A stretch of DNA of 32,000 bases, from positions 720,001-752,000 of the forward strand of contig CP064995.1 of assembly GCA_016700015.1 (NCBI GenBank). The letters are read 5' to 3'. The translations under genes were made by a program, and so were the position numbers. The stretch's first letter is position 1. The number at the start of each line of letters is the position of its first letter. The notes beneath the pieces were generated by a model. It was not told where the DNA came from and made no database searches. It saw only the letters and a program-made list of their open reading frames with translations. Below, one piece after another: positions 9,777 through 30,615 of this stretch. The stretch comes from Candidatus Saccharimonadota bacterium. Its GTDB lineage: Bacteria > Patescibacteriota > Saccharimonadia > Saccharimonadales > Saccharimonadaceae.

Positions 9777-9887
9777 ATTTTTCCTTATTTAACTTACCTT
9801 ATTGTAGCAAAAGAAAGCGTACAACAATAATAAACCGGCAACACGCTATCGTTTGGCGAGCTGGTACGCTATGCTAAGAATATGTAC

Positions 9888-10796
9888 ATGTCGGAACTTA
9901 TCATCGATTTTATCGAGCACCTCGAAGTTGAGCGCGGTCGCTCGGCAAAAACTGCCGAAAACTACCGTCGCTACTTAGAACGGTTCATCGAATTTGCCGG
10001 CGATATACCGGTTGATCAAATTACCAGCGAACGGGTACGCAAATACCGCTTGTGGCTCAACCGCTATGTTGGTGAATTCGGCGACGAACTCGCAACCATC
10101 ACCCAGAGTTATCACCTGATTGCGCTGCGCGGTTTTCTCGCTTATCTTGGCAAGCGCGACATAACCGCACTCAGCCCCGACAAAATCGAGCTACCAAAAG
10201 TCCATCGCAAACAAGTAACGTTTCTTCACTATGAAGAAGTCGAGCGCATGCTTGATGCCATACCGGGTGACGAAGCGCCACAACATCTGCGTGACCGGGC
10301 AATCATGGAACTATTGTTTTCGAGCGGCCTGCGCGTTTCAGAGCTGATCAACCTCGATCGTGGGCATATTAATACGAAGAGACGCGAATTTATGGTAAGG
10401 GGCAAAGGCCAAAAGGATCGCCCAGTCTTTATTAGCGAAACGGCTGCAGCTCATGTTGAGACGTATTTGGCTTGTCGAGCGGACTCACTCGCCCCACTCT
10501 TCCTTAACTACAGCCGCAATAGTATTGCTGATACCTCTGGTAATTATCGTCGCTTAACGCAGCGTAGTGTGCAGCGCATGATAAGCCGCTATGCTAAGCT
10601 TGCTGGTATTACCAAACACGTCAGTCCCCATACCATGCGTCATAGCTTTGCAACTGATTTACTGATGAATGGTGCCGATATCCGCAGCGTCCAGTCGATG
10701 CTTGGCCATAGCAGCATCAGTACCACACAGGTGTATACGCACGTTACCGATGCACACCTACGCGACGTGTACGAGAAATTTCATAGCAAAGACTAG
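9888..10796 (+). CDS. xerC: Tyrosine recombinase, XerC/XerD family
   Basis: SAM-like N-domain (IEHLEVERGRSAKTAENYRRYLERF) and catalytic C-domain (RDRAIMELLFSSGLRVSEL, HTMRHSFATDLL, GHSSISTTQVYTHV). XerC and XerD cannot be told apart by eye. I prefer the start at 9888 (7 nt after TGcTAAGAA, leaderless); the ORF-track start at 9882 is the alternative. Confidence 0.85.
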   Translation: MSELIIDFIEHLEVERGRSAKTAENYRRYLERFIEFAGDIPVDQITSERVRKYRLWLNRYVGEFGDELATITQSYHLIALRGFLAYLGKRDITALSPDKIELPKVHRKQVTFLHYEEVERMLDAIPGDEAPQHLRDRAIMELLFSSGLRVSELINLDRGHINTKRREFMVRGKGQKDRPVFISETAAAHVETYLACRADSLAPLFLNYSRNSIADTSGNYRRLTQRSVQRMISRYAKLAGITKHVSPHTMRHSFATDLLMNGADIRSVQSMLGHSSISTTQVYTHVTDAHLRDVYEKFHSKD

Positions 10797-11962
10797 GGCT
10801 TGGTTGGGTCGCAGCCGCCATCGTTGTAGTCAGTGGGGTCAAGTGCAACAATGAAGCTTTTGCAGAAGTTGTGAGTGATATCAACAGTCGCACGCGGATA
10901 GAGTAGTCCTTCATTTGGGTCAACCAGTTCTACCCTGGCATCGACACGACGGAATACATCTGCTGCTCTTCCGGTTGAGTCAATCGATGGCTGTACACCA
11001 TTGAAATCAACTGAACCGCCACTGGAATTCTCGAGTATAATCTTGTAGTCTGCGGCATTGTAGATAGCGGTAATACGAAGGTATGCTCGACGATTCTTCA
11101 TATCACCATCCATTCCAATCGGATCGGGTAGCTTAATCCTTGCTTCACATGCATAGCCGTCATTGACAAAATCAGCAGCGCAGCGCACCAATGACGGTGC
11201 GAGCGTGCCGGATCGTCTGCCATCAGCTGCAAAATTTAGCGTGGTCACGCCTGAGCTATTGGGATATAGGTAGAGGGTATGCGATGCACCATCATTGTCG
11301 AAGTCGGATTGACGAAAACCGGTGCTACTAAACTGCATGAGCTGGAGACGCATGAGCGGAGGATTAGCAGCGTTGCCAGTATTATCCCAATCTACAAGCT
11401 TTGGTAGTAATGGTGAAGCGACGTTACTCAGCGCGGGTTTTTTAAGTGGACTAGCGGGGTCTTTTGCATACCAATAGAAGTGAACCGTGTCGAATGCATC
11501 TGAACTTGCAACTGTCAGTGGTACAACATTTGATTCATCAAGCTTAAGTGTCCCACGATAGTCACGCGTGTTACGACTAATTTTTACACAAGTATATGAC
11601 TGTTGGAAATCAGTTCCGTTTGCACCTAGTGAAGTTTTTAGGTAGACTTCTCCGTTAGCTTCTGCCTTGACAATTTTGGCCGCACTGACTGTTGTACACG
11701 TCGGCTCTCCGGCTAGCACAGTACAGGCATCAGAAGCTGCATCAGCCGCACACGCGGCAAGTACCCGTTTACCATCTTCGATACCTGCAAGTGCAGAGTC
11801 GTAGGCTCCCTGTGACAACTCGTTGTCGTTACTGCGACTTTGCTCAAGCGACATAATCTTCATGAAACTGACGGTGACAGTGATAAATAAAAGCACTGCA
11901 AACATGACAATAACAAGGGCAGTCGCACCTCGTTCTTTACCGCGATAAGTAGTGTGTATCAT
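10793..11962 (-). CDS. PilX-like minor pilin / pilus-associated protein
   Basis: N-terminus KERGATALVIVMFAVLLFITV resembles the PilX N-terminal pattern (RGxxLxxxLxxLxxL). Last gene of the pseudopilin run. ATGA-coupled to the upstream gene. Confidence 0.6.
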   Translation of the reverse strand: MIHTTYRGKERGATALVIVMFAVLLFITVTVSFMKIMSLEQSRSNDNELSQGAYDSALAGIEDGKRVLAACAADAASDACTVLAGEPTCTTVSAAKIVKAEANGEVYLKTSLGANGTDFQQSYTCVKISRNTRDYRGTLKLDESNVVPLTVASSDAFDTVHFYWYAKDPASPLKKPALSNVASPLLPKLVDWDNTGNAANPPLMRLQLMQFSSTGFRQSDFDNDGASHTLYLYPNSSGVTTLNFAADGRRSGTLAPSLVRCAADFVNDGYACEARIKLPDPIGMDGDMKNRRAYLRITAIYNAADYKIILENSSGGSVDFNGVQPSIDSTGRAADVFRRVDARVELVDPNEGLLYPRATVDITHNFCKSFIVALDPTDYNDGGCDPTKP

Positions 11963-19512: not shown

Positions 19513-19520
19513 AGTAGTTC

Positions 19521-19754
19521 CTACTGTGCAGCGCCAGACCCGCCGATAACTGTTTGAACCGTTGGATTGATGGCGTCTTTGTTGAACACCTTATCGCTCG
19601 GTGCAACAACATCGGACTTTACTTTTGAAGCAACAGGCACCTTCACACCCTTTTCTTCGAGCTTGAGCCCAGGAATTTGATCACCGATTAAAAAAGCAAT
19701 GAGTGCCGTCATACTCGCGATCAGAATAATCATCGCGATATCACTTTTTTTCAT
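19521..19754 (-). CDS. Hypothetical single-TM protein (77 aa) between the pilO-like gene and pilB
   Basis: MKKSDIAMIILIASMTALIAFLIG TM followed by a Lys/Val-rich tail. ATGA-coupled to the upstream gene. Occupies the position of PilP-like accessory proteins but shows no recognisable motif. Confidence 0.5.
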   Translation of the reverse strand: MKKSDIAMIILIASMTALIAFLIGDQIPGLKLEEKGVKVPVASKVKSDVVAPSDKVFNKDAINPTVQTVIGGSGAAQ

Positions 19755-20438: not shown

Positions 20439-21164
20439 CTAGTTGCCCTCCGTTGTGTCTTTAGCCTGTTGGCTAAATAGTGAGTCTGGTACACGGGTTC
20501 GTGAATCGGTCACATCGATCTTGTTCGTCGGTGTAACAACTTTAATCGACTGAAGCGTATTGTCGAAAAGCCCTTCAGGATACGTGAATGATAGTGAGAA
20601 TCTCAAGACCTTTCCTCCGTTGGCTCCTTCACCGTAACTGGTTTCGCCCATGATTACTTTATCGGTAAGTGTCACCGACGATAAGTCGTCGCCACTACCA
20701 CTCTCTAGTTTCGTGTTGAGGATAGTTTTTCGAAATGTTTCGGTAGCTGGATAGCCGTTTACTGCCGAGCCTTCGATTGTGAGATTTTTGGTCTCAGGAT
20801 CGAGTTTAATATTTGATATCTTGATGTCGTTCGGCGCTGGTGGATTGATTGCAGCAAGCAGATCAAAGACGCGCGAATCGATTGATTTATTCTGGTGGAT
20901 GTCCGAGATTTTAGAGAGCTGATTTTGGATTGTCAGTACATTCTCGATATTATCGATTGATTGAAAAGTTTTGAAATCTTTCTTAATATTATCGCGCACA
21001 ACTGTCTCAGTAATCGCCTGACCACCAAGGAAAAGTGCCAAGAGCGCTACAACTCCACCGGCAGTGACACCAATAACGATCGCCAGCGTGATTGCCATAT
21101 TGCGCATTTTCTGCGCACGAATAAAAGCTTGCTTTACATCAGGGATAAGGTTTACTTCGATCAT
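20439..21164 (-). CDS. pilN: PilN-like pilus alignment protein
   Basis: MIEVNLIPDVK (PilN-type INLLP-like start) followed by a single TM. ATGA-coupled to pilM. Confidence 0.7.
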   Translation of the reverse strand: MIEVNLIPDVKQAFIRAQKMRNMAITLAIVIGVTAGGVVALLALFLGGQAITETVVRDNIKKDFKTFQSIDNIENVLTIQNQLSKISDIHQNKSIDSRVFDLLAAINPPAPNDIKISNIKLDPETKNLTIEGSAVNGYPATETFRKTILNTKLESGSGDDLSSVTLTDKVIMGETSYGEGANGGKVLRFSLSFTYPEGLFDNTLQSIKVVTPTNKIDVTDSRTRVPDSLFSQQAKDTTEGN

Positions 21165-22207
21165 AGCTCACCACTCCTTTTGGCAAGTCCAATCACGGTG
21201 GCAAACTCGGTAGCGACCGGGCCAAGCTGTTTTTGATCATTCTCGGTCATTTGAATACCTTGCCAGGGGTTAGCTACATGCACTTGCTTGCCGACCTTTC
21301 CAGCCAGGTAGCTGTCGAACTGCGGAATAGCTGACGCAAAACCAGCCAGTAACACTCCTTCAGTAGTAACACTCGGATAGCGTGTTTCAAAAAATTTGAT
21401 CGATTTGGTAATCTCTCCGGCGAAATTATCGAGTGTAGTTTCAAGTGCTCGTAACACCTGTCCTTCAAGTCGATCGGGGGCAAGGCCGAATTTGAGAATA
21501 AACTGTCGAGCCTGATCATCTTGGACATTCAGGTTAGAAACAGTTGCCTTAACAAATGAACTAATACCGGTGGGAATGGTACGAATGAGCCGAGGCGCAT
21601 CGCCATATACAATAGCGATATCGGTCGAGTTTTCACCCATATCCAGCTGTACGACTGCACCTTGCGAACCTTGCACTGTCAGCGCGCGAACCATGGCAAT
21701 CGGATCGGGCTCGGCAGCAATAACATTAAGCCCAAGTGCCTCAACCATTTCGAGCCGCTCCTCACTATACGTTTTAGATACGCTTGAAAGTAATACTTCC
21801 TGCTGGTTTTGTGCTCTCAGCGATACACCAAGGAGTGCCCAGTCGACTTTAGCTTCATCGACCGCCATTGGAATATACTGGTCAATCTGATACTTCATCG
21901 TGGATTTTAGTTCTGATTCACTCGACATGGGTACGTCGATAATTGTTGTGAAGGTTTTGCTTGACGGAAGGCCGATCACGACATTTTTGGTTTTAATACC
22001 ACTCTGACCTACGGCTGTCATGATAACTTCTGAAACCTTACGTCGCGCCTCTTCAGAGTCACTGCCAGTAAGCCTGCTGTCAACCGGTGCATAGCCGTAA
22101 TGATCTAATACCCAGCCACTTGCAGCCTTCTTTAGTTGCACGACACGAATGGCGTTAGTGCCAATATCCAGTGCAAAGAAATCGCCCATCCCTTTTAGCA
22201 TACTCAT
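21161..22207 (-). CDS. pilM: Type IV pilus actin-like ATPase PilM
   Basis: 348 aa with FtsA/actin-like phosphate motifs (ALDIGTNAIRVVQL, LDMGENSTDIAIV). Confidence 0.85.
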   Translation of the reverse strand: MSMLKGMGDFFALDIGTNAIRVVQLKKAASGWVLDHYGYAPVDSRLTGSDSEEARRKVSEVIMTAVGQSGIKTKNVVIGLPSSKTFTTIIDVPMSSESELKSTMKYQIDQYIPMAVDEAKVDWALLGVSLRAQNQQEVLLSSVSKTYSEERLEMVEALGLNVIAAEPDPIAMVRALTVQGSQGAVVQLDMGENSTDIAIVYGDAPRLIRTIPTGISSFVKATVSNLNVQDDQARQFILKFGLAPDRLEGQVLRALETTLDNFAGEITKSIKFFETRYPSVTTEGVLLAGFASAIPQFDSYLAGKVGKQVHVANPWQGIQMTENDQKQLGPVATEFATVIGLAKRSGEL

Positions 22208-22216
22208 ATTACTCTT

Positions 22217-22246
22217 TAGTATACATAAGCGATATGTATATTGGCA
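22217..22246 (-). promoter_or_regulatory. Possible internal promoter ahead of pilM
   Basis: Minus strand: TTGCCA (22246-22241), 18-nt spacer, TATACT (22222-22217). Confidence 0.3.
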
Positions 22247-22267
22247 AGTGTTTTTACTCCTATGGCA

Positions 22268-24592
22268 TTAGTATCGCGGTGGGAGCTCAGTGATACTTTT
22301 CGTCTTCCACACGCCGTTCGTGGCCGAAACACGGTGCGACCATATATAGGTATCGGCTCTCATGTCGAGTACTTCGGCTGGCGCGCCAGCGCTACTGAAA
22401 GTTCGTTTTAGCAGTAGGCTACCCGCGACTATCGGACCAGTTACGCGTAAATCTTGCTTGCAATCATTCGCCGTCAGAGGTTCGCTGTGTTCATAGCAAG
22501 TATCAATTACCCCACCCGGAGCAACAAGCCAAGCGTCTATATTTCTAACGTTCTGGGAGATACGGATTGCATTTGCAATAATCACAAACTGTTCGATATT
22601 CTTATCAGTCCCTGTCAGAACGCCGTTTGGAGCATTGAGTGACGAAGCAATCGTGACAACACCACTTGAATACACCACCTGGTTTGCCACATAGTCTGCC
22701 GATGTTAGTGTAACATCACCAACATCTCGCCTAGTGACACCGCTAGGTATGGTCGGCTTCGTAAAGTAAGCTTTGATGTCGGGGACAGTACCGATTTGTG
22801 CACCAGAACCGAAATTACCGAGCGCAGCTGTATTGTTGGCGAATGTTAGCCGACTCCATGAAGCGGCCGTGCTAGTTGCTCCAGCCGCATTGAGACCAGA
22901 ACCCGATGCAACACTAGCAACCACACTGGGTGCGAGAACTGAGTATTCGCCCCAAGAGCCAAATGTTCTTACCGCTCCGCCACTATTCACTGTCAGAAGA
23001 CCAGACTCTACGCGAGACAACAGGTTGGTGGCAACTGTAGTACTTGAACCGACTCTCAGATCATTACCCCACACCTGGACTAGCGGCTTTTGCCCTATAA
23101 GCACACAGGCCGGATCGGCAATACGCCTAGTAGTATCACTTGCTGCACTCGTAGTGTAATCAAAATGCCGGACAGCAACAACACGACAAATCTTCTCGCC
23201 AATCACATTGGCACTTGTGGCGATAGCTTCTGTATCGATTGTTTTGTCCGACGTAATGATTTCTGTTCCCTGTGCGTTGCTGCCATTTTTTAATTTAGAC
23301 AGCTTACAGTTCGTTGATTTGACCTGTGTGTAGGTGGTAGAGAGCCAGTCGCATACCGTCTGGGTACCGCCATAGCTCACTTGAGCAAAACTGCCGTGCG
23401 CACCAATTTTGTTGAAATGCACCGCAAAATTCGGCAAAGGATCATTCTTGCCTATCACAAACTCATAGACCGTCCACTCTGTGGCGGTTTCGGGTGTATT
23501 GCCGTTGCGATACACCATGTCAGTAGTTGCGACAGTGTCACCAACCGAGATCGTACTGCGCTTTGAAGCGTCGAGTAGGCTAGAATACGGCTCGTAGTTG
23601 TAGTCGGAGTGGATTCGGGCACACACGTCGCTCGTGGCATGCAAACTGCTGTCATTGTACGAAAATGGCTGCCATACCAGCCGTTGACACAAGTTTTTTC
23701 CTATATCGGCAGCTGTCACTGTATAAAGCCCGAATGGGTCGGTGATACTCCAAGATGTATTACTATTGAAGGCCTTGGGTTGGTCAACCCCTATCGAGCC
23801 ACTCCAACTACCTGTACGCTGCGAGGCGTCCCACATATTTTGAGCGGACGCTCCCGATGTAAAGTTACTAATTGTCATACTATGGCTCCACTCTAATTTA
23901 TCGCCCGGAAAGGCATCGATTAGACTGCCACTACCTGTCGAACCATCGCTGCGAGTATAAAAGACCTGCGTTGCAGCCGATGATGTCCAGGAATTTGCTC
24001 GACCGGCACGGGTGACATATACATTGACAACCTCTGTATAGCAGGCACCTTTTGTGCCATTCTGGGAGAAGCAGCGGTAAATACCTACTTGGAGGGTAGT
24101 TGTTACTGGACTGCTAGTAGTATTAAGCGGGACGGAACTAATATTGAGTGTAGCTGTAATCTCACCCCCCTTTGTTGACCAGTTGCTCGCAGCCGGACTT
24201 GGCAAAGTACCACGAGACAGCGTCGTACTACTGAGGTTTGAAAGAAGCGTCGCGTTAGGAGCATCCGTTCTCACATCGACTGCCTTTACATCACCGGGAC
24301 TACCATATTTACAACCATAGACCGATCCCCTAATTGAAACATCTACTGTTTGTGCATCACTCGAAACGTTCACTGTATCGTTATAATAGCTCGCGCTGTT
24401 TGTGAACCATATTGCACCACGTGCACCGAATGCGGTGCCCTCCCCCCAATAGCATAGGTTATAGGCATTTTGTTCAGCAGTGTTATATGGCACACGATTA
24501 TCGGCGAAGACCTCTACCGACGGTATAATCGCACCGGCTACACTAAGTAACATAAGTACAAGTAGTGTCACGATTAAGTGGGATCGACTCAT
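22268..24592 (-). CDS. Large secreted protein of unknown function, paralog B (774 aa), T4P-linked
   Basis: Signal peptide MSRSHLIVTLLVLMLLSVAGAIIPSVEVFA. The C-terminal ~390 aa align with the 25155-27347 protein (CRVVAVRHFD, PLVQVWGNDLRVGS, SWGEYSVLAP, AWLVA, VTGPIVA, PAEVLDMRAD, ELPPRY). The N-terminal half is divergent. Confidence 0.8.
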   Translation of the reverse strand: MSRSHLIVTLLVLMLLSVAGAIIPSVEVFADNRVPYNTAEQNAYNLCYWGEGTAFGARGAIWFTNSASYYNDTVNVSSDAQTVDVSIRGSVYGCKYGSPGDVKAVDVRTDAPNATLLSNLSSTTLSRGTLPSPAASNWSTKGGEITATLNISSVPLNTTSSPVTTTLQVGIYRCFSQNGTKGACYTEVVNVYVTRAGRANSWTSSAATQVFYTRSDGSTGSGSLIDAFPGDKLEWSHSMTISNFTSGASAQNMWDASQRTGSWSGSIGVDQPKAFNSNTSWSITDPFGLYTVTAADIGKNLCQRLVWQPFSYNDSSLHATSDVCARIHSDYNYEPYSSLLDASKRSTISVGDTVATTDMVYRNGNTPETATEWTVYEFVIGKNDPLPNFAVHFNKIGAHGSFAQVSYGGTQTVCDWLSTTYTQVKSTNCKLSKLKNGSNAQGTEIITSDKTIDTEAIATSANVIGEKICRVVAVRHFDYTTSAASDTTRRIADPACVLIGQKPLVQVWGNDLRVGSSTTVATNLLSRVESGLLTVNSGGAVRTFGSWGEYSVLAPSVVASVASGSGLNAAGATSTAASWSRLTFANNTAALGNFGSGAQIGTVPDIKAYFTKPTIPSGVTRRDVGDVTLTSADYVANQVVYSSGVVTIASSLNAPNGVLTGTDKNIEQFVIIANAIRISQNVRNIDAWLVAPGGVIDTCYEHSEPLTANDCKQDLRVTGPIVAGSLLLKRTFSSAGAPAEVLDMRADTYIWSHRVSATNGVWKTKSITELPPRY

Positions 24593-24600
24593 GGAAATCG

Positions 24601-25083
24601 TTATCCTTCACCTTTCGGCGGATTGGCAGTGCTTGTCTGATAGGTCTTAATGGAAATTTCGAGTTGTTCCACGCTGCTCACGCCCCGCAGATTAGTATTA
24701 ACATATACACCCTTATCGACATTAGACTTCAGTGAACTAAGATAACTAGTGGCGATGACGGTATTACCGTCAACTAAGCTTTTCTGTGTCAGTATATAGA
24801 GACAGGTCGAGTCATCCCTGTAGCCACTACGCGATACAATTGTCTTCTCGAGCTGGGACAACCTGGCAGGCTGCTTACTGATATCATCGAAAGCAGCATT
24901 GTATTGATCGACAATCTTCTTATCGCATACGTCTGCAACTAACCTCACCTGTTGCGAAGGTTGCTTGATGCCGATATAGCCATAACCGAGCAGCACGCTG
25001 CCAACAGCTCCACCGACAAAGACACAGCAAAGAATGAGCACAAAGGCTACTTTGCTAAAACCGGCTGATATACGATAAGGCAT
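24601..25083 (-). CDS. Hypothetical N-terminally anchored protein (160 aa) between the two paralogs
   Basis: Start moved to the ATG at 25083, which has SD GGGAGGA 7 nt upstream. TM VAFVLILCCVFVGGAVGSVLLGYG followed by a soluble domain. Confidence 0.55.
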   Translation of the reverse strand: MPYRISAGFSKVAFVLILCCVFVGGAVGSVLLGYGYIGIKQPSQQVRLVADVCDKKIVDQYNAAFDDISKQPARLSQLEKTIVSRSGYRDDSTCLYILTQKSLVDGNTVIATSYLSSLKSNVDKGVYVNTNLRGVSSVEQLEISIKTYQTSTANPPKGEG

Positions 25084-25154
25084 AGACTTTCCTCCCAAAC
25101 TACTTGTGCTTACATATGTATTTAGTATAACAGCCGTATTAAGCTTGCACCACC

Positions 25155-27347
25155 CTAATACCGTGGTGACAGTTCTCTTAGTGACCGTGTGACCCACTTA
25201 CCATTGCTGACTGAAACTCGATGGGCCCATAGAAAGGCATCGCTCCGGAGATCGATGACTTCGGCAGGGTTGCGGGCGTTTCCTGCAGTCCGCCGCAAAA
25301 ATAATTGTTTAGCAACAATCGGGCCCGTTACTATAAGTGGACGCCCGCATATATTAGTCGTTAGTTGATCAGATAAGTGTTCGTCACATGTGCTAACATA
25401 GCCAGCAGATGCCACGAGCCACGCGTTAACTGTTTGCACGGTGTCACGGATAATAATGTTGCCAGTGGCAATAATTACCATTTGAGAAATAGTCGTTTCA
25501 TCGAGTAGTGTAGGATTGGGATGAACTATATCTCGGTCAATAATAACTGTGCCCTTAACGTAGTGGACACCGGGACTATAGGCACTAATTATGTGATTAC
25601 CGCTGTATACCGTTGTATCTGCGGAGGGCTTCGAACCAAAGTATTGCTCCATATCGGGGAGACCCCCAACAAACAACGGTGCACCAAACTGACCCAGTGT
25701 TGGCGCAGTATTTGAAAACGTCAGTTTACTCCAGGCACTCTGCGCGCCCGGCAGACCCAGTCGGTTAAATCCCGATCCCGAAGAAAATCCGTTGATTGAG
25801 TCCGGTGCTATGACCCCATATTCACCCCAAGAACCCGTAGCTCCATCTCCCGACAACATCATGCCGCCTACTATACTGCTAGCGATATTGGCACTAGTGC
25901 TGGTGGCACTCCCAACTCTCGTATCATTACCCCATATTTGAACAGTTGGCCTCTTGGCAATCTTTACGCAAGCTGGGTATGATACCCGGCGCCAGGCCGT
26001 CGACATGTTAGGAAAATCAAACGAACGAACAGCCAGCATACGACACACTATATCGCCAAGGGAATAGTCGTCAGCGCGTATAGGTATGGCGTCGGTAATT
26101 GACGTATCGCCTCTGTCAAATATCAAACTACCGTTTGCTGTCCGTGACTGACACACAATATTACCCGCAGCTCCTGGGAGTGTCCTTAACCAATCGTTGC
26201 ACGCCTCACCGGCATCGGCGTAACTAGCAAGCGCAAAGGCATAACCATCAATCGACTGATTGAACACACCCGCCAGAGGAAAGCTTTTCCCCCTTGGTAT
26301 TACAAACTGGTAGGCGCCGTACCTTGAGCTATAGTCAGCTTTTTCACCAGAATTATGCACAATCTCGGTTGGCACTACTGATTCACCCAAACTCAGTGTT
26401 GTCATAGAAACACCCTTAATTTTTGTACTCGGCAACAAGTTGTTAATCCCACAGCGGCTGGCAGCGTTAATACTATCGTAAGGCAGCTTGAACTGAATAA
26501 CATTGTTAGTATACACATCGGTGAGTACAAAATTGTATCGGTGGCCTTTGGTATGAGTAAAAACAAACGTGTCCGTCATGCCGTTGCCCGATGACGGCGT
26601 ACTAAAGTTCTGACGAATACCCGTATCGATATCCTCGACATACGCAGACATAGTACGACTATACTGTGCGGCACCATCACTACTACTAGCGTCATTATCT
26701 GGGTCATATACAATAATACTCGCCGTCCCAGTGTCGGCTGTACATGGCGCTGCAAACGGTAGGCTGTAAGTAAAAAAGTTGCCGCAGCCATCGTCATTTG
26801 CCTGACGGCATCGATCTTGGTTAAGAATGGCAAATCGCTCATCGTTGTCAGCACTTGAATATCCAATGAGACCCCCATCTGGCAGCCCTAGGCGAAAGCC
26901 ACGGCGATTGGAATCGGAGATAAGCGAGAACTTTACAAGTGCTTTGTATTTCTTGCTGTCAGCGTTGTAATGAAATTCACTTGCAGGTACCCAGAAACTA
27001 CCGGCTGTCGAACCGCTATTATTGTCGCACATAGTCCACGGCGACGAAGCACCCGCTACTGGTGAGTCGACTTGGATGCCACGAGGACGGTCATCACACC
27101 AAAACGTAACACGCACATTACTGCCCGGTGCGGTGTCGAGGTAGATTGGGATACCAGTGCTCTTAGCACCGCTCACATCGTCAGTATTTGCTAGATAGTA
27201 CGATACATTAGCACCACCAAACTCAGCTTTGTCGGGGCCGTTGTTCGATATCGCCTGCACGTGATGCTGAAATACCGTCACCCCAATACCCGTCGTCAGC
27301 ACAACAAAGACCACTACCCACCACTTACGACCGTGAACGCGTTTCAT
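25155..27347 (-). CDS. Large secreted protein of unknown function, paralog A (730-733 aa), first gene of the T4P supercluster
   Basis: N-terminal signal/TM segment KWWVVVFVVLTTGIGVTVFQHHVQA. C-terminal module shared with paralog B (CRMLAVRSFD, PTVQIWGNDTRVGS, SWGEYGVIAP, AWLVA, VTGPIVA, PAEVIDLRSD, ELSPRY). I prefer the start at 27347 (7 nt after TATAAT); 27356 is the alternative. Confidence 0.8.
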   Translation of the reverse strand: MKRVHGRKWWVVVFVVLTTGIGVTVFQHHVQAISNNGPDKAEFGGANVSYYLANTDDVSGAKSTGIPIYLDTAPGSNVRVTFWCDDRPRGIQVDSPVAGASSPWTMCDNNSGSTAGSFWVPASEFHYNADSKKYKALVKFSLISDSNRRGFRLGLPDGGLIGYSSADNDERFAILNQDRCRQANDDGCGNFFTYSLPFAAPCTADTGTASIIVYDPDNDASSSDGAAQYSRTMSAYVEDIDTGIRQNFSTPSSGNGMTDTFVFTHTKGHRYNFVLTDVYTNNVIQFKLPYDSINAASRCGINNLLPSTKIKGVSMTTLSLGESVVPTEIVHNSGEKADYSSRYGAYQFVIPRGKSFPLAGVFNQSIDGYAFALASYADAGEACNDWLRTLPGAAGNIVCQSRTANGSLIFDRGDTSITDAIPIRADDYSLGDIVCRMLAVRSFDFPNMSTAWRRVSYPACVKIAKRPTVQIWGNDTRVGSATSTSANIASSIVGGMMLSGDGATGSWGEYGVIAPDSINGFSSGSGFNRLGLPGAQSAWSKLTFSNTAPTLGQFGAPLFVGGLPDMEQYFGSKPSADTTVYSGNHIISAYSPGVHYVKGTVIIDRDIVHPNPTLLDETTISQMVIIATGNIIIRDTVQTVNAWLVASAGYVSTCDEHLSDQLTTNICGRPLIVTGPIVAKQLFLRRTAGNARNPAEVIDLRSDAFLWAHRVSVSNGKWVTRSLRELSPRY

Positions 27348-27430
27348 ACCCTGCATTATATACCATAAGCGAATTACTGAGTAAGTCTCCCTCCTGTTTC
27401 ACTAATTCCATAGCAATATCTCGTCACCAC

Positions 27431-27447: not shown

Positions 27448-28530
27448 ATGAGCTTATCTATTGGTATCGTGGGCCTGCCCAATGTTGGCAAGTCAACACT
27501 ATTCAATGCCCTCACTAACAATGATATTTTGGCGGCGAATTATCCATTCGCCACAATCGATCCGAATACAGGCGTGGTACCTGTGCCCGACAAGCGCCTT
27601 GGTATGCTCGCACGCATGTACAATGCCGAGCGAGTCATCCCCGCTACCGTCACCTTCGTTGACATCGCCGGGCTCGTCGCTGGTGCCAGCAAGGGCGAGG
27701 GCCTTGGCAACAAGTTCCTGGCCAATATCCGCCAGTGCGACGCCATCGTCCATATTGTGCGAGCATTTGAAAATACTGACATTTTACATGTGGAAGATAG
27801 CGTCAATCCGCAGCGTGATATCGAAACCATCAATACCGAGCTAGCGCTCGCCGATATTCAAACCATCGACACCCGACTGGTGCGGCTTACAAAAGAAGCA
27901 AAAAGCGACCCCAAGGCAAAAGAAACTGTCGCTTACCTAACATCACTCAAGCAGCTCCTTGAGTCGGGCAAGCTACTCAATCAGCAAAGTGATCTCGATC
28001 CAGAAATCATTCGCGATCTGCACCTGCTGACAGCAAAACCAGTGATTTATGTGTTCAACGTCAACGAAGAAACACTAGTCGATGAGGCAAAAAAGCGCGA
28101 GCTACGGGCACTCGCCCAGCAGAGTCATGCACTGTTTATCTGCGCCAAGCTTGAAGATGAAATAAAAGGACTCAATCCAGCTGACGCAGCAGAATTGCTC
28201 GCTGCCTACGATATTCCCGAAGCAGGCCTGGTGCAAATGATTCATGCCGCCTACGATATATTGGGACTACAGAGTTACCTGACAGCCGGCCCCAAAGAAG
28301 TGCGCGCTTGGACGATCAGGCAAGGCGCGACCGCACCACAGGCCGCAGGTGTTATCCACACTGATTTTGAAAAAGGCTTCATAGCCGCACAAGTTGTCGA
28401 CTATTTCGACCTTGTTGCCGCCGGCTCTGAAGCAGCGGCTAAGGCTGCCGGCAAAGTTGCGACCGTGGGGCGCGACTACGTGATGCAGCCAAACGATGTC
28501 GTTGAATTTCGCTTCAATGTGAGCAAATAA
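27448..28530 (+). CDS. ychF: Redox-regulated ATPase YchF (Obg-like)
   Basis: GIVGLPNVGKSTLFNALT P-loop, DIAGLVAGASKGEGLGNKFL, and a C-terminal TGS-like domain (KEVRAWTIRQGATAPQAAGVIHTDFEKGFI). Confidence 0.95.
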   Translation: MSLSIGIVGLPNVGKSTLFNALTNNDILAANYPFATIDPNTGVVPVPDKRLGMLARMYNAERVIPATVTFVDIAGLVAGASKGEGLGNKFLANIRQCDAIVHIVRAFENTDILHVEDSVNPQRDIETINTELALADIQTIDTRLVRLTKEAKSDPKAKETVAYLTSLKQLLESGKLLNQQSDLDPEIIRDLHLLTAKPVIYVFNVNEETLVDEAKKRELRALAQQSHALFICAKLEDEIKGLNPADAAELLAAYDIPEAGLVQMIHAAYDILGLQSYLTAGPKEVRAWTIRQGATAPQAAGVIHTDFEKGFIAAQVVDYFDLVAAGSEAAAKAAGKVATVGRDYVMQPNDVVEFRFNVSK

Positions 28531-28641: not shown

Positions 28642-30615
28642 CTATCCCTCGACGCGGCGGAGGCGCCGGTTCGCCAGCAGCAGACCAGCACCAAGGGCCA
28701 TGAGCCCCAGACTGATCCACAGCGGCAAACTGATATCGCTACCCGTGTTGGGCAGCTGCTGGCACGTAGCCAGTTCAGCCGCGTCGAGCTTGACGCTCTT
28801 CACGGTCGGCTCGCCGACCAGTATCCAATGAGCCCGGTTGGGGTCATTTGTGTACTTGCTGTCCGCCAGAACCTGGGGGACAGAATACGTGCTGGTCTCA
28901 ACCAGCTTCGTACCTTCGGTGCAGGACACCGAATTAGCAACATCACTGCTGACCAGCACGGTCTTAGGACCGGGGTTAGGCGGCATCGGCGGGGTCACCG
29001 GGCACTCCGACTGATCGGTCGCAAAGTTGGCCTGCAGGTAGGGCTCGAAGCCCGCAACCGTAGGACCAAACGACAGATCCACCATCGCATAGGTCGTGGT
29101 GAACTGCTCGGTGGCGCCAGGCGCGACCGTGAACTGACCCGAGATGTTCTCGGTGTTCACAAGGTCGTCACCCCAGAGCACCAGCACCGAAGGGTTAGCC
29201 GCTGGGTTAGCGACCTTCACCACTCCGCCGCACGTCTTGGTGACGATCAGGGGCGCCAAGTCCTTGTTGGGAACCTGGCACACCACACCGTTGTCAGCTG
29301 GCAGCGTGAAGACCTTCGGCGCCGTGGTGCCGTCAGACCAAGTGGTCCGAACAGTGTCACGGAGCGTCGCTACCTTCTGACCCTTGTCGTTCACTGACCA
29401 AGTGTACTTGTCGGTGTCGGTGGTAGCGTCCCAAACGGGCGGGACAACCGCACCACCGGCCGGGTTGCACCGGTCAGTCGACGCGGGCTGCGTGGGAATG
29501 GCCACCTTCTCGGGCGTGAACGTGTAGACCACGCACTCCGAAGGCAGCGGGTTGTCCGGGCCATACTCGGTCCGACTCAACTCGGTGCCATCAGGGCCGC
29601 GAACGACCAGCGTCACTCCGTAGAGTCCCTGCGAGGGCAGCTCAAGACTGATACCATCAGCGACGGGGTTCCACCCGAAGGTAAGGAACTCTTCGCCCTG
29701 GTACACGGCGATCGCATACCACTCACTGCCAGCCGGGTAGCCGACGAACGAGCCGCACAGCTTGACGGTAGCGACCGGACATGACGCCTTCTCGGCATCG
29801 GTCATGGCACGGGTCTGGGTCTCAGTGGTCGTCACAGCGTGAGCCGGATCAAGCACCCAGGCCGTTCCAAGAGCGTTGAGCATCTTGGGCGTGCTGGTGA
29901 CGGTCCGCGTCTGCTCGACCGTTCCGGTCGGACAGCTCTTAGCCCCATCAGTCCAGTCACCAAACGAAACGTCGGGCGGCGGCTGTGGACCGGCACACTG
30001 GGACTTCTCGTCCGCCGTCATGTCGCGGTTACGCGACTCGGTCTTCGTGGTCCACTCGGACTCAGGAGCATCGACGTACTGACCCACCGAGTCGCCCCAC
30101 ACCTGTGGGATAGTGGTAACAGTACGAGTCTGGACAACCGTTGCGGTTGCGCAGCTCTTGGCCCCATCGACCCAGTCGGTCGTGACCGTGCGCGGGCCAG
30201 GGTTGGCCGGCACACAGTTCAACGCCCCGAAGGTCACAGTCCGCGTGTCGGTACCGGCCTGGTTCGCCCACTTCAGGGCGAACGTGACCGTACCGCCGGC
30301 CGTGGTGTAGACACCGAGGTCGATAGTGAACTGCTCGGTGGCACCCACCTTGACGGTCTTGGTTCCACCCGACTTGCTGGCCACCGTTGCAGTGACCACC
30401 ATGTCGAGGCCAGAACTAGCCGGCTCAGTGTTGGTGAACGTAGCGTTCACCTGCACGCCTGAGTTGCTACAGACAGCCGTAGCCGACTGAGACGTCGACC
30501 ATGCGTAGGCCATGCGAGGACTGAGGCTCACGCCGATCACGGCGATCACCAAGATCGCCAGCCAGCGCCCTACGTTCACACGCCACTTGGGCGCACGATG
30601 CGTTGTTGCACTCAT
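28642..30615 (-). CDS. LPXTG-anchored cell-wall surface protein with Cys-bracketed repeat modules
   Basis: 657 aa. Signal peptide (RWLAILVIAVIGVSLSPRMAYA). C-terminal sorting signal LPNTG + TM (ISLPLWISLGLMALGAGLLLA) + basic tail NRRLRR. Internal repeats present. SD-like GGAAGGGG before the ATG. Confidence 0.85.
   Translation of the reverse strand: MSATTHRAPKWRVNVGRWLAILVIAVIGVSLSPRMAYAWSTSQSATAVCSNSGVQVNATFTNTEPASSGLDMVVTATVASKSGGTKTVKVGATEQFTIDLGVYTTAGGTVTFALKWANQAGTDTRTVTFGALNCVPANPGPRTVTTDWVDGAKSCATATVVQTRTVTTIPQVWGDSVGQYVDAPESEWTTKTESRNRDMTADEKSQCAGPQPPPDVSFGDWTDGAKSCPTGTVEQTRTVTSTPKMLNALGTAWVLDPAHAVTTTETQTRAMTDAEKASCPVATVKLCGSFVGYPAGSEWYAIAVYQGEEFLTFGWNPVADGISLELPSQGLYGVTLVVRGPDGTELSRTEYGPDNPLPSECVVYTFTPEKVAIPTQPASTDRCNPAGGAVVPPVWDATTDTDKYTWSVNDKGQKVATLRDTVRTTWSDGTTAPKVFTLPADNGVVCQVPNKDLAPLIVTKTCGGVVKVANPAANPSVLVLWGDDLVNTENISGQFTVAPGATEQFTTTYAMVDLSFGPTVAGFEPYLQANFATDQSECPVTPPMPPNPGPKTVLVSSDVANSVSCTEGTKLVETSTYSVPQVLADSKYTNDPNRAHWILVGEPTVKSVKLDAAELATCQQLPNTGSDISLPLWISLGLMALGAGLLLANRRLRRVEG
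29779..30189 (-). repeat. Tandem ~65-aa protein-level repeat inside the LPXTG protein
   Basis: aa 143-207 (TVTTDWVDGAKSCATATVVQTRTVTTIPQVW...RDMTADEKSQC) versus aa 216-279 (VSFGDWTDGAKSCPTGTVEQTRTVTSTPKML...RAMTDAEKASC). A more diverged third copy lies near the C-terminus (SCTEGTKLVETSTYSVPQV...LDAAELATC). Confidence 0.55.

Follow-up and report, generated by a model that had tools for sequence, protein, structure and literature searches.

Secreted proteins encoded beside type IV pilus genes in Saccharibacteria and their possible place at the pilus tip

Saccharibacteria are the best-studied group of the ultrasmall epibiotic Patescibacteria. Their type IV pili (T4P) are needed for host attachment, motility and survival (PMC9894109, PMC10633639, PMC11623550). 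As host-recognition factors at the pilus tip, modular pilins are the candidates put forward in the oral strain TM7x. Here we examine a 32,000-nucleotide stretch of a Candidatus Saccharimonadota genome (contig CP064995.1, positions 720,001 to 752,000; hereafter the window), in which three co-oriented minus-strand genes fill the interval between pilM, the first gene of a T4P cluster, and the divergent gene ychF. They encode a 733-amino acid (aa) protein, a 160-aa protein and a 774-aa protein. The question raised by this locus is what two large exported proteins, with a small one encoded between them, might be doing beside a pilus machine. We found that the large proteins belong to a sizeable family with a conserved C-terminal module and a near-invariant terminal peptide; the family is T4P-linked in dozens of species and, if its members do act at the pilus tip, would offer a concrete host-recognition candidate in environmental Saccharimonadales.

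A protein family defined by its C-terminal module

The three genes lie where a previous sequence-only reading of the window had placed them (Table 1), with a small product of 160 aa and large products of 774 aa and 730-733 aa. At the first ATG of the 733-aa gene (27356) there is an overlapping TATAAT box; the protein may for this reason start at Met4 (27347) instead, at 730 aa, which agrees with the range given earlier. GC content of the three genes is 0.46-0.49, compared with 0.49 for the window. Aligned by BLASTP, the 774-aa and 733-aa proteins share 168 of 439 residues (38%, E 4e-86) over residues 346-774 and 319-733, respectively, while their N-terminal ~320 aa gave no significant alignment. 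Identity rises from 17.6% in the N-terminal region to 26.1% in the middle and 43.1% over the last ~310 aa, and a tblastn search of the window DNA with the 774 module found the 733 module at 42% identity (E 1.7e-74). A shared C-terminal module with barely alignable N-terminal parts, as the earlier reading had described, is therefore borne out, and every motif block it listed, together with the ELPPRY/ELSPRY termini, is present in the two translations. Its description of the N-termini as Cys-rich was too strong, as each protein has 12 cysteines (1.6%), of which four are in the shared module. These four form two pairs that are conserved across the family (469/496 and 699/711 in the 774-aa protein).

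Both large proteins begin with a putative Sec-type signal peptide, read by eye from the sequence, covering aa 1-35 of the 733-aa protein (cleavage VQA/I) and aa 1-30 of the 774-aa protein (cleavage VFA/D). The cleavage sites are AXA-like, with N-termini MSRSHLIVTLLVLMLLSVAGAIIPSVEVFA followed by DN in the 774-aa protein and M..KRVHGRKWWVVVFVVLTTGIGVTVFQHHVQA followed by IS in the 733-aa protein. Neither protein contains a pilin leader, an LPXTG signal or a PilY1 propeller, and Pfam gave no N_methyl (class III pilin leader) or Gram_pos_anchor match in either; ELPPRY/ELSPRY are the last residues, with nothing beyond them. No head domain was recognised in the N-terminal part of either window protein. 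As the sequence-only reading had supposed, no known domain could be found, with both proteins lacking matches in Pfam (E<=0.1), NCBIfam (E<=1) and PHROGs (E<=0.1), and a family profile searched against Protein Data Bank (PDB) sequences returning 0 matches at E<=10. The module likewise matched no well-characterised family unrelated to pili, and among 47 diverse members it had no Pfam match at E<=0.01. One candidate, DUF7305, appeared below threshold in a single distant member (P0018, E 0.012; 1 of 47 even at E<=5), had no mention in the literature searched, and was dismissed. An origin as a phage tail fibre was also considered and is unsupported, with no relatives in PHROGs or viral contigs.

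The sequence-only reading had put the module forward as undescribed, and the literature we searched contained no description of such a protein in Saccharibacteria. A rarity, on the other hand, it is not. Word-indexed homologue searches returned 6, 11 and 7 matches only and falsely implied a rare family, an impression overturned by an exhaustive profile hidden Markov model search over 1.84 billion representatives, which found the C-terminal module in 5,457 clusters (50% identity) at E<=1e-3 and in 2,648 at E<=1e-30. Members in that search are 320-1209 aa long, and proteins compared across the different family architectures range from 560 to 1322 aa. Where the N-termini of listed members are divergent or longer, the match is in most cases limited to the C-terminal ~300-440 profile positions. 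Several polar residues in the module are invariant (D511, E549, N586, Q668, D686, R730, E740, R745 and D747). Of 162 members, 151 have an N-terminal hydrophobic Sec-type segment and none begins with a class III pilin leader (G[FM]T[LI]xE-type), and no membrane anchor was found in the family beyond the cleavable-looking signal peptide. Judged by sequence, the C-terminal module defines a real family without an annotated relative. Within it, orthologues of the 733-aa protein reach 62% identity in locus L005 and 49% in L006, its closest named relative being Candidatus Saccharimonas, and the 733-aa and 774-aa proteins are two old paralogue lineages rather than hypervariable heads.

The small gene between them was given its start at the ATG at 25083, where a GGGAGG Shine-Dalgarno sequence lies 7 nt 5′ of the ATG and where the orthologues begin; its stop codon is 8 nt from the start codon of the 774-aa gene. 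The 160-aa protein has no Pfam or NCBIfam match. Its N-terminus is short and basic and is followed by a single transmembrane helix and a helical domain of ~120 aa, for which a location outside the membrane is predicted. Of 39 large genes, 23 are directly preceded by a comparable open reading frame (ORF) of 143-221 aa, which encodes a single transmembrane helix at the N-terminus ahead of a helical domain and often extends over the start codon of the large gene. In one subgroup of these partners the protein is of a true TPR type (L011, TPR_2 E 3e-11), and the window protein falls into a second subgroup with conserved Cys residues. From its sequence features, the small protein looks to be a helical or TPR-like partner anchored in the membrane and found repeatedly alongside the large gene, which adds to what the sequence-only reading had described. 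TPR domains bind C-terminal peptides, for example in EEVD and PTS1 receptors, and it is therefore tempting to think that the small partner may act as a chaperone.

Tail, predicted structure and heads

Over 162 members the extreme C-terminal tail follows the consensus G-R-(hydrophobic)-Q-T-V-Y-T-T-E-L-P-P-R-[Y/F/L]. Counting back from the C-terminus, position -1 is Tyr, Phe or Leu in 161 of the 162, -2 is Arg in 150, -3 is Pro in 161, -5 is Leu in 151, -6 is Glu in 153 and -11 is Thr in 154. The tail is rich in beta-branched residues. Two other explanations for it were examined and ruled out: a sortase, exosortase or rhombosortase sorting signal, because no transmembrane segment follows the tail, and an outer-membrane beta-signal, which does not fit a monoderm whose cluster has no secretin.

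An AlphaFold model of the 774-aa protein built on a 99-sequence alignment (model m91e578fb996d) has a mean predicted local distance difference test score (pLDDT) of 87.1 and a predicted template modelling score of 0.64. An earlier model from 17 sequences gave a module pLDDT of only ~33, and the 99-sequence alignment cured this low confidence. The newer model places a beta-sandwich domain chain (~35-500) after the signal-peptide helix, followed by the module. In the module, strands (505-548) give way to a loop-rich stretch that includes short helices; then come short strands in pairs (620-743) and finally a helix (746-759). Residues 464-774 contain only ~17 strands and four helices in all, and the paired short strands are, on the model, compatible with a beta-solenoid. 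In both models the near-invariant tail (762-774) is left disordered, with a pLDDT below 50; in the newer model the remainder is confident. Foldseek was run on the whole model, and its matches describe the head only; those in the PDB are tandem immunoglobulin (Ig)-like arrays (integrin alpha legs, PrgB, antigen I/II, CfaE) with TM-scores of 0.1-0.2, and the viral matches are similar.

Outside the window, some heads do have recognisable domains. Among the 47 diverse members searched against Pfam, heads occasionally match DUF11, DUF7507 or CARDB. One subgroup has a vWA head, which passes Pfam's gathering score (cut-off 23.8) in P0065 (32.8 bits) and P0114 (33.0 bits); P0017, of the same vWA subgroup, has the DxSxS...T...D motif pattern. 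The sequence-only reading had proposed variable binding heads on a constant module, and this stands in part. Head architectures differ across the family, but within an orthologous lineage conservation of the head equals or exceeds that of the module (74% against 66% for the 774 type, 71% against 55% for the 733 type). Between near-identical strains no head-focused diversification was seen, with only 6 and 4 substitutions, evenly spread. Free swapping of head modules was also considered and rejected; in single-linkage clustering most heads merge through intermediates, suggesting they are mostly diverged relatives.

Pilus gene synteny and a promoter-like element

Downstream (3′) of pilM in the window are PilN-like and PilO-like genes, pilB, pilT, pilC, a 154-aa major-pilin-like gene, pilD and four minor pilins. 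The three Glu5 minor pilins and the 389-aa pilin (Table 1) are a GspH/I/J/K-like set. No secretin, PilP or PilY1 was found among the window proteins scanned, in agreement with the earlier description of a secretin-less system without PilY1.

To see how firmly the family goes with pilus genes, 32 species-level loci were compared, all from Saccharibacteria or Patescibacteria metagenome-assembled genomes (MAGs). Synteny with T4P genes, a check named in the sequence-only reading, was found in most of them. In 24 of the 32 a gap of 53-94 bp separates the family gene from the start of pilM behind it, and as in the window the gene adjoins pilM and is ~8-10 kb from the minor pilins of the same co-oriented cluster; in 2 more pilM is one gene further, within 1.2 kb. 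One contig ends inside the gene, and the other five loci have no pilM. Four of these five still place the family gene beside minor pilins: in L028 and L035 it immediately precedes four minor-pilin genes that are orthologous to those of the window and ordered as they are there, and in L033 and L034 it is directly upstream of a homologue of the 389-aa GspK-like pilin. L029 has no pilus gene nearby. P0014 and P0017, which are only 23-29% identical to the window paralogues, and two further representatives from the exhaustive search, P0085 and P0060, are all in the slot between ychF and pilM. Two family copies, as in the window, occur in 6 of the 32 loci (L005, L007, L010, L011, L013 and L028).

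In host-associated Saccharibacteria, such as a goat jejunum MAG, a cassette of small partner and large gene is found away from pilM, either flanking a second set of minor pilins (L028 5356-17165, with two cassettes) or paired with a single, isolated GspK-like pilin (L033 615-4743). The large proteins of these detached cassettes are longer (822-1322 aa), with the tail variants ELAPRY and ELPVRY. In L003 and L006 a large gene occupies the slot between tlyA and ychF, where Southlakia epibionticum has no gene.

The T4P1 locus of S. epibionticum (SEML1_0102-0120) has the same gene order as the window from tlyA to the PH-domain gene (PMC10633639 Table S1). The window differs from it by the three genes studied here and an LPXTG protein gene, which are not at these positions there. 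At the operon position of the 389-aa pilin, S. epibionticum has SEML1_0116, with a GspK pilin domain (ECOD e3ci0K3) and a galactose-binding-like insert (PMC10633639 Table S2).

The 60-bp gap between the 774-aa gene and pilM contains a sigma-70-like promoter element (Table 1). The alignment took in the gaps of 22 of the 24 species loci that have pilM next to the family gene (within L005-L036), together with those of L001, of L003 and of the window itself, and the element (-35 CTTGC, -10 TATAAT, ~10 nt to the ATG) is conserved in 24 of 24 aligned intergenic regions. The gap consensus, CTTGC.T.TA...TT..GTATAAT, then ~10 nt, then ATG, is kept even though identity among the flanking family proteins is only 25-30%. 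Because the -10 box is ~10 nt from the pilM start codon, the pilM leader would be very short. The pilus machinery genes probably have their own promoter, as far as the sequence can tell. No terminator-like site was found in the gap, and read-through into pilM is therefore possible. The three genes had been described as heading the pilus operon; they are indeed co-oriented and upstream of pilM, but with a conserved promoter-like element before pilM they may be an adjacent upstream unit with read-through rather than a strict operon head. Upstream of the 733-aa gene (27347-27375, minus strand), GCTTATGGTATATAAT resembles the pilM promoter core GCTTATGTATACT by eye. Support from a pattern search for a promoter motif common to this region and the pilM gap was not beyond chance.

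Table 1. Coordinates of the features discussed, as positions in the window; a slash within a leader marks the cleavage site.
Feature	Position	Strand	Basis or remark
733-aa family gene ("733-type" head lineage)	25155-27356	-	ORF call
733-aa protein, conserved C-terminal module, aa 433-720	25197-26060	-	tblastn and BLASTP
733-aa protein, extreme C-terminal tail ...KWVTRSLRELSPRY-COOH	25158-25196	-	Translation and family tail logo
160-aa partner gene	24601-25083	-	Orthologue alignment and Shine-Dalgarno; longer ORF 24601-25197 = 198 aa
774-aa family gene ("774-type" head lineage)	22268-24592	-	ORF call
774-aa protein, conserved C-terminal module, aa 464-761	22310-23203	-	Conservation, predicted secondary structure
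774-aa protein, tail aa 762-774, KTKSITELPPRY-COOH, proposed donor strand or docking peptide	22271-22309	-	
Sigma-70-like promoter element TTGCCA-18-TATACT	22218-22247	-	Scan, 10/12 matches
pilM, first gene of the pilM-N-O-B-T-C-pilin-pilD-minor-pilin cluster	21161-22207	-	PF11104 PilM_2, E 1.6e-39
Three Glu5 core minor pilins, 231, 192 and 240 aa	11959-13935	-	Leaders RRG/FTLVE, WRG/DTVVE, AKG/FSVIE; N_methyl match on the 231-aa pilin
389-aa PilX/PilK/GspK-type minor pilin without Glu5, predicted tail acceptor	10793-11962	-	Leader ...KERG/ATALV
ychF	27448-28530	+	
657-aa LPXTG protein gene, between tlyA and ychF	28642-30615	-	LPNTG, hydrophobic segment, RRLRR; Gram_pos_anchor
Gap of 238 bp between the PilO-like gene and pilB	19513-19750	-	
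XerC-type tyrosine recombinase gene	9882-10796	+	

Possible roles and other features of the window

Last, we considered what the large proteins might do. The most likely function, in our view, is that of PilY1-like non-pilin proteins of the pilus tip, a proposal that strikes us as evenly balanced between right and wrong. We arrive at it because the proteins are Sec-exported non-pilins found in two T4P contexts, with a variable head, a conserved C-terminus and a disordered invariant tail, in a cluster that has a GspK-type pilin and no PilY1. After export, the ~300-aa C-terminal module would seat on the minor-pilin tip complex. The last ~13 residues (...T-x-x-x-x-E-L-P-P-R-Y/F) would then insert as a donor beta-strand into the Glu5-less 389-aa GspK/PilX-like pilin, fixing the protein at the pilus tip, and this insertion may also license pilus initiation. 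The N-terminal beta-sandwich chains (vWA in one subgroup) would face away from the pilus and attach to the host bacterium's surface, in which case a pair of paralogues would provide two binding specificities. Until the large protein is loaded, it or its C-terminal peptide may be kept at the membrane by the small helical or TPR-like protein anchored there.

Such a mechanism would parallel PilC/PilY1, and the proposed mode of MshQ, in diderms. The last ~10-12 residues of PilC/PilY1 strand-complement the Glu5-less PilK/PilX and are needed for pilus assembly and tip retention, and in systems without PilY1 either GspK carries the strand in cis or a large unrelated protein, for example MshQ, is used instead (Ellison et al., bioRxiv 2026, PMC12918778). 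Myxobacterial models agree with C-terminal strand complementation (PMC13190605). Like the family, PilC/PilY1 proteins (Neisseria PilC1/2, Pseudomonas and Acinetobacter PilY1, Myxococcus PilY1.1-1.3) are large Sec-exported non-pilins, encoded with core minor pilins or the pilus cluster, often as several paralogues per genome, and they combine a conserved C-terminal part and terminal peptide with a variable N-terminal part (vWA in some). The gene order in L028, L035, L033 and L034 is that of pilY1 with fimU-pilVWX. The family differs in having a ~300-aa module of solenoid-like short strands plus a helix, with no propeller and no sequence similarity to the PDB, in belonging to a monoderm without secretin, in lying usually upstream of pilM rather than within the minor-pilin operon, and in the presence of a small partner gene. 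The PilY1 propeller itself (PF05567, C-terminal ~500 aa, a modified seven-bladed form) has no Pfam match in the window proteins at E<=0.1 and is not among the families listed for the 47 diverse members at E<=5.

MshQ of the Vibrio MSHA system is also a large non-pilin unrelated to PilY1 and encoded beside GspI/J/K-like minor pilins, and its docking through the extreme C-terminus has been proposed from modelling (Ellison et al. 2026). No sequence relation between MshQ and the family was detected, its domain content is different and its system is diderm. Modular pilins (Streptococcus sanguinis PilB with a vWA and PilC with a lectin module, PilX1/PilX2 of the TM7x N. lyticus, TadG/CpaL) resemble the family as proposed tip adhesive modules of monoderm or Tad pili, some with vWA or beta-sandwich/lectin-like heads. 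They have an N-terminal pilin helix and a globular pilin domain (in PilB with a class III leader), unlike the family, which has a Sec signal and a distinct module and, as given above, no class III leader. The TM7x study proposed the modular pilins PilX1 and PilX2 as tip proteins. Identity of the large proteins with these was rejected, since both contain pilin domains and the counterpart of PilX1 in the window is the 389-aa pilin. Sortase-anchored adhesins (antigen I/II, PrgB, and also the 657-aa LPXTG protein of the window) share the tandem Ig-like beta-sandwich arrays; the family lacks their LPXTG, C-terminal transmembrane segment and basic tail, and ends in ELPPR[YF]-COOH.

Several points weigh against placing the proteins at the pilus tip. 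Their placement on the pilus is itself something we infer, and the equivalence with PilY1 is one of analogy only, as the module is not a beta-propeller and has no sequence relation to PilY1 (Pfam, PDB profile, model). Co-transcription with the machinery genes is not assured, given the conserved promoter element before pilM. In S. epibionticum the ychF-pilM gap is 12 bp and holds no such gene, yet its T4P-1 is essential and functional (PMC10633639), so the family protein is no universal requirement at this position. Within a lineage, going by sequence alignments, the heads are as conserved as the module or more so, a weaker signal than expected for a diversifying host-recognition determinant. 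The Pro-Pro in the tail is unusual inside a beta-strand. Finally, the 389-aa pilin has ~40 residues after its own conserved C-terminal motif and might supply the complementing strand itself, as GspK of the type II secretion system (T2SS) does.

With that said, the tip proposal can be taken further, in a form that we hold to be rather doubtful: Saccharibacteria would have their own class of non-pilin tip proteins with a non-propeller fold, which would dock by an ELPPR[Y/F]-COOH strand on the GspK-like pilin after handover from a peptide-recognising TPR-like chaperone, with the heads setting the host. If the tip proposal is right, the newly proposed rule of C-terminal strand complementation for pilus initiation would extend to a monoderm phylum and to a new fold.

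An unlikely alternative, but the first to be weighed, is that the large proteins work independently of the pilus as secreted or surface proteins, either adhesins or host-wall enzymes with a catalytic or wall-binding module, and are merely co-located with the T4P genes and perhaps co-regulated. The conserved promoter before pilM suggests a separate transcription unit, the invariant polar residues of the module could form an active or binding site, and the model of strands 620-743 would allow a beta-solenoid, a fold common in polysaccharide-degrading enzymes; another surface protein, the LPXTG protein, is also encoded near ychF. The association with T4P genes in two independent contexts (pilM and minor pilins), across proteins only 23-30% identical, speaks against mere co-location. 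Furthermore, no enzyme family was detected in Pfam, NCBIfam, PHROGs or the PDB sequence profile, an enzyme role would leave the invariant disordered C-terminus unexplained, and a free adhesin would have no wall-anchoring signal to keep it on the cell.

It is decidedly less probable that the proteins are envelope-spanning components of the machine, such as a conduit through the wall or surface layer, or a partner of PilN/PilO that replaces PilP/PilQ. The gene does adjoin pilM-pilN-pilO in most genomes, the window proteins scanned include no secretin or PilP, and the C-terminal module is strongly conserved. Against this, the window and 6 of the 32 loci have tandem paralogues with different heads, and head architectures vary and include vWA. 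When the gene is relocated it goes with minor pilins and not with machine genes, the essential T4P-1 locus of S. epibionticum lacks it, and no membrane anchor was found beyond the cleavable-looking signal peptide. Least credible of all, to the point of being very improbable, is that the proteins are cargo presented or released by the pilus machinery as by a type II secretion-like piston: they are Sec-exported without an anchor and encoded with a T4P/T2SS-type machine, and T2SS substrates do sit on the GspK-containing tip (PMC12918778), but in a monoderm there is no second membrane to cross, the invariant C-terminal peptide is more in keeping with stable retention than with release, given that T2SS cargo does without strand complementation (Ellison et al., PMC12918778), and PilT is present, with twitching known in relatives (PMC9894109).

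Three other features of the window should be mentioned. The XerC-type tyrosine recombinase gene converges on the end of the minor-pilin genes, with a 4-nt overlap with the 389-aa pilin gene. In S. epibionticum xerC followed by ndk is found as well (SEML1_0117-0118), and because the arrangement is the same the gene belongs to the conserved chromosomal neighbourhood and does not point to a mobile element. At the position of the gap between the PilO-like gene and pilB, a gene of 75-105 aa is called in related loci and in S. epibionticum (L001 14804-15121, L003 14704-14931, SEML1_0107). The LPXTG protein gene has a GC content of 0.628, compared with 0.49 for the window and 0.44-0.52 for all its other genes, which suggests horizontal acquisition, possibly from a high-GC (actinobacterial) source.

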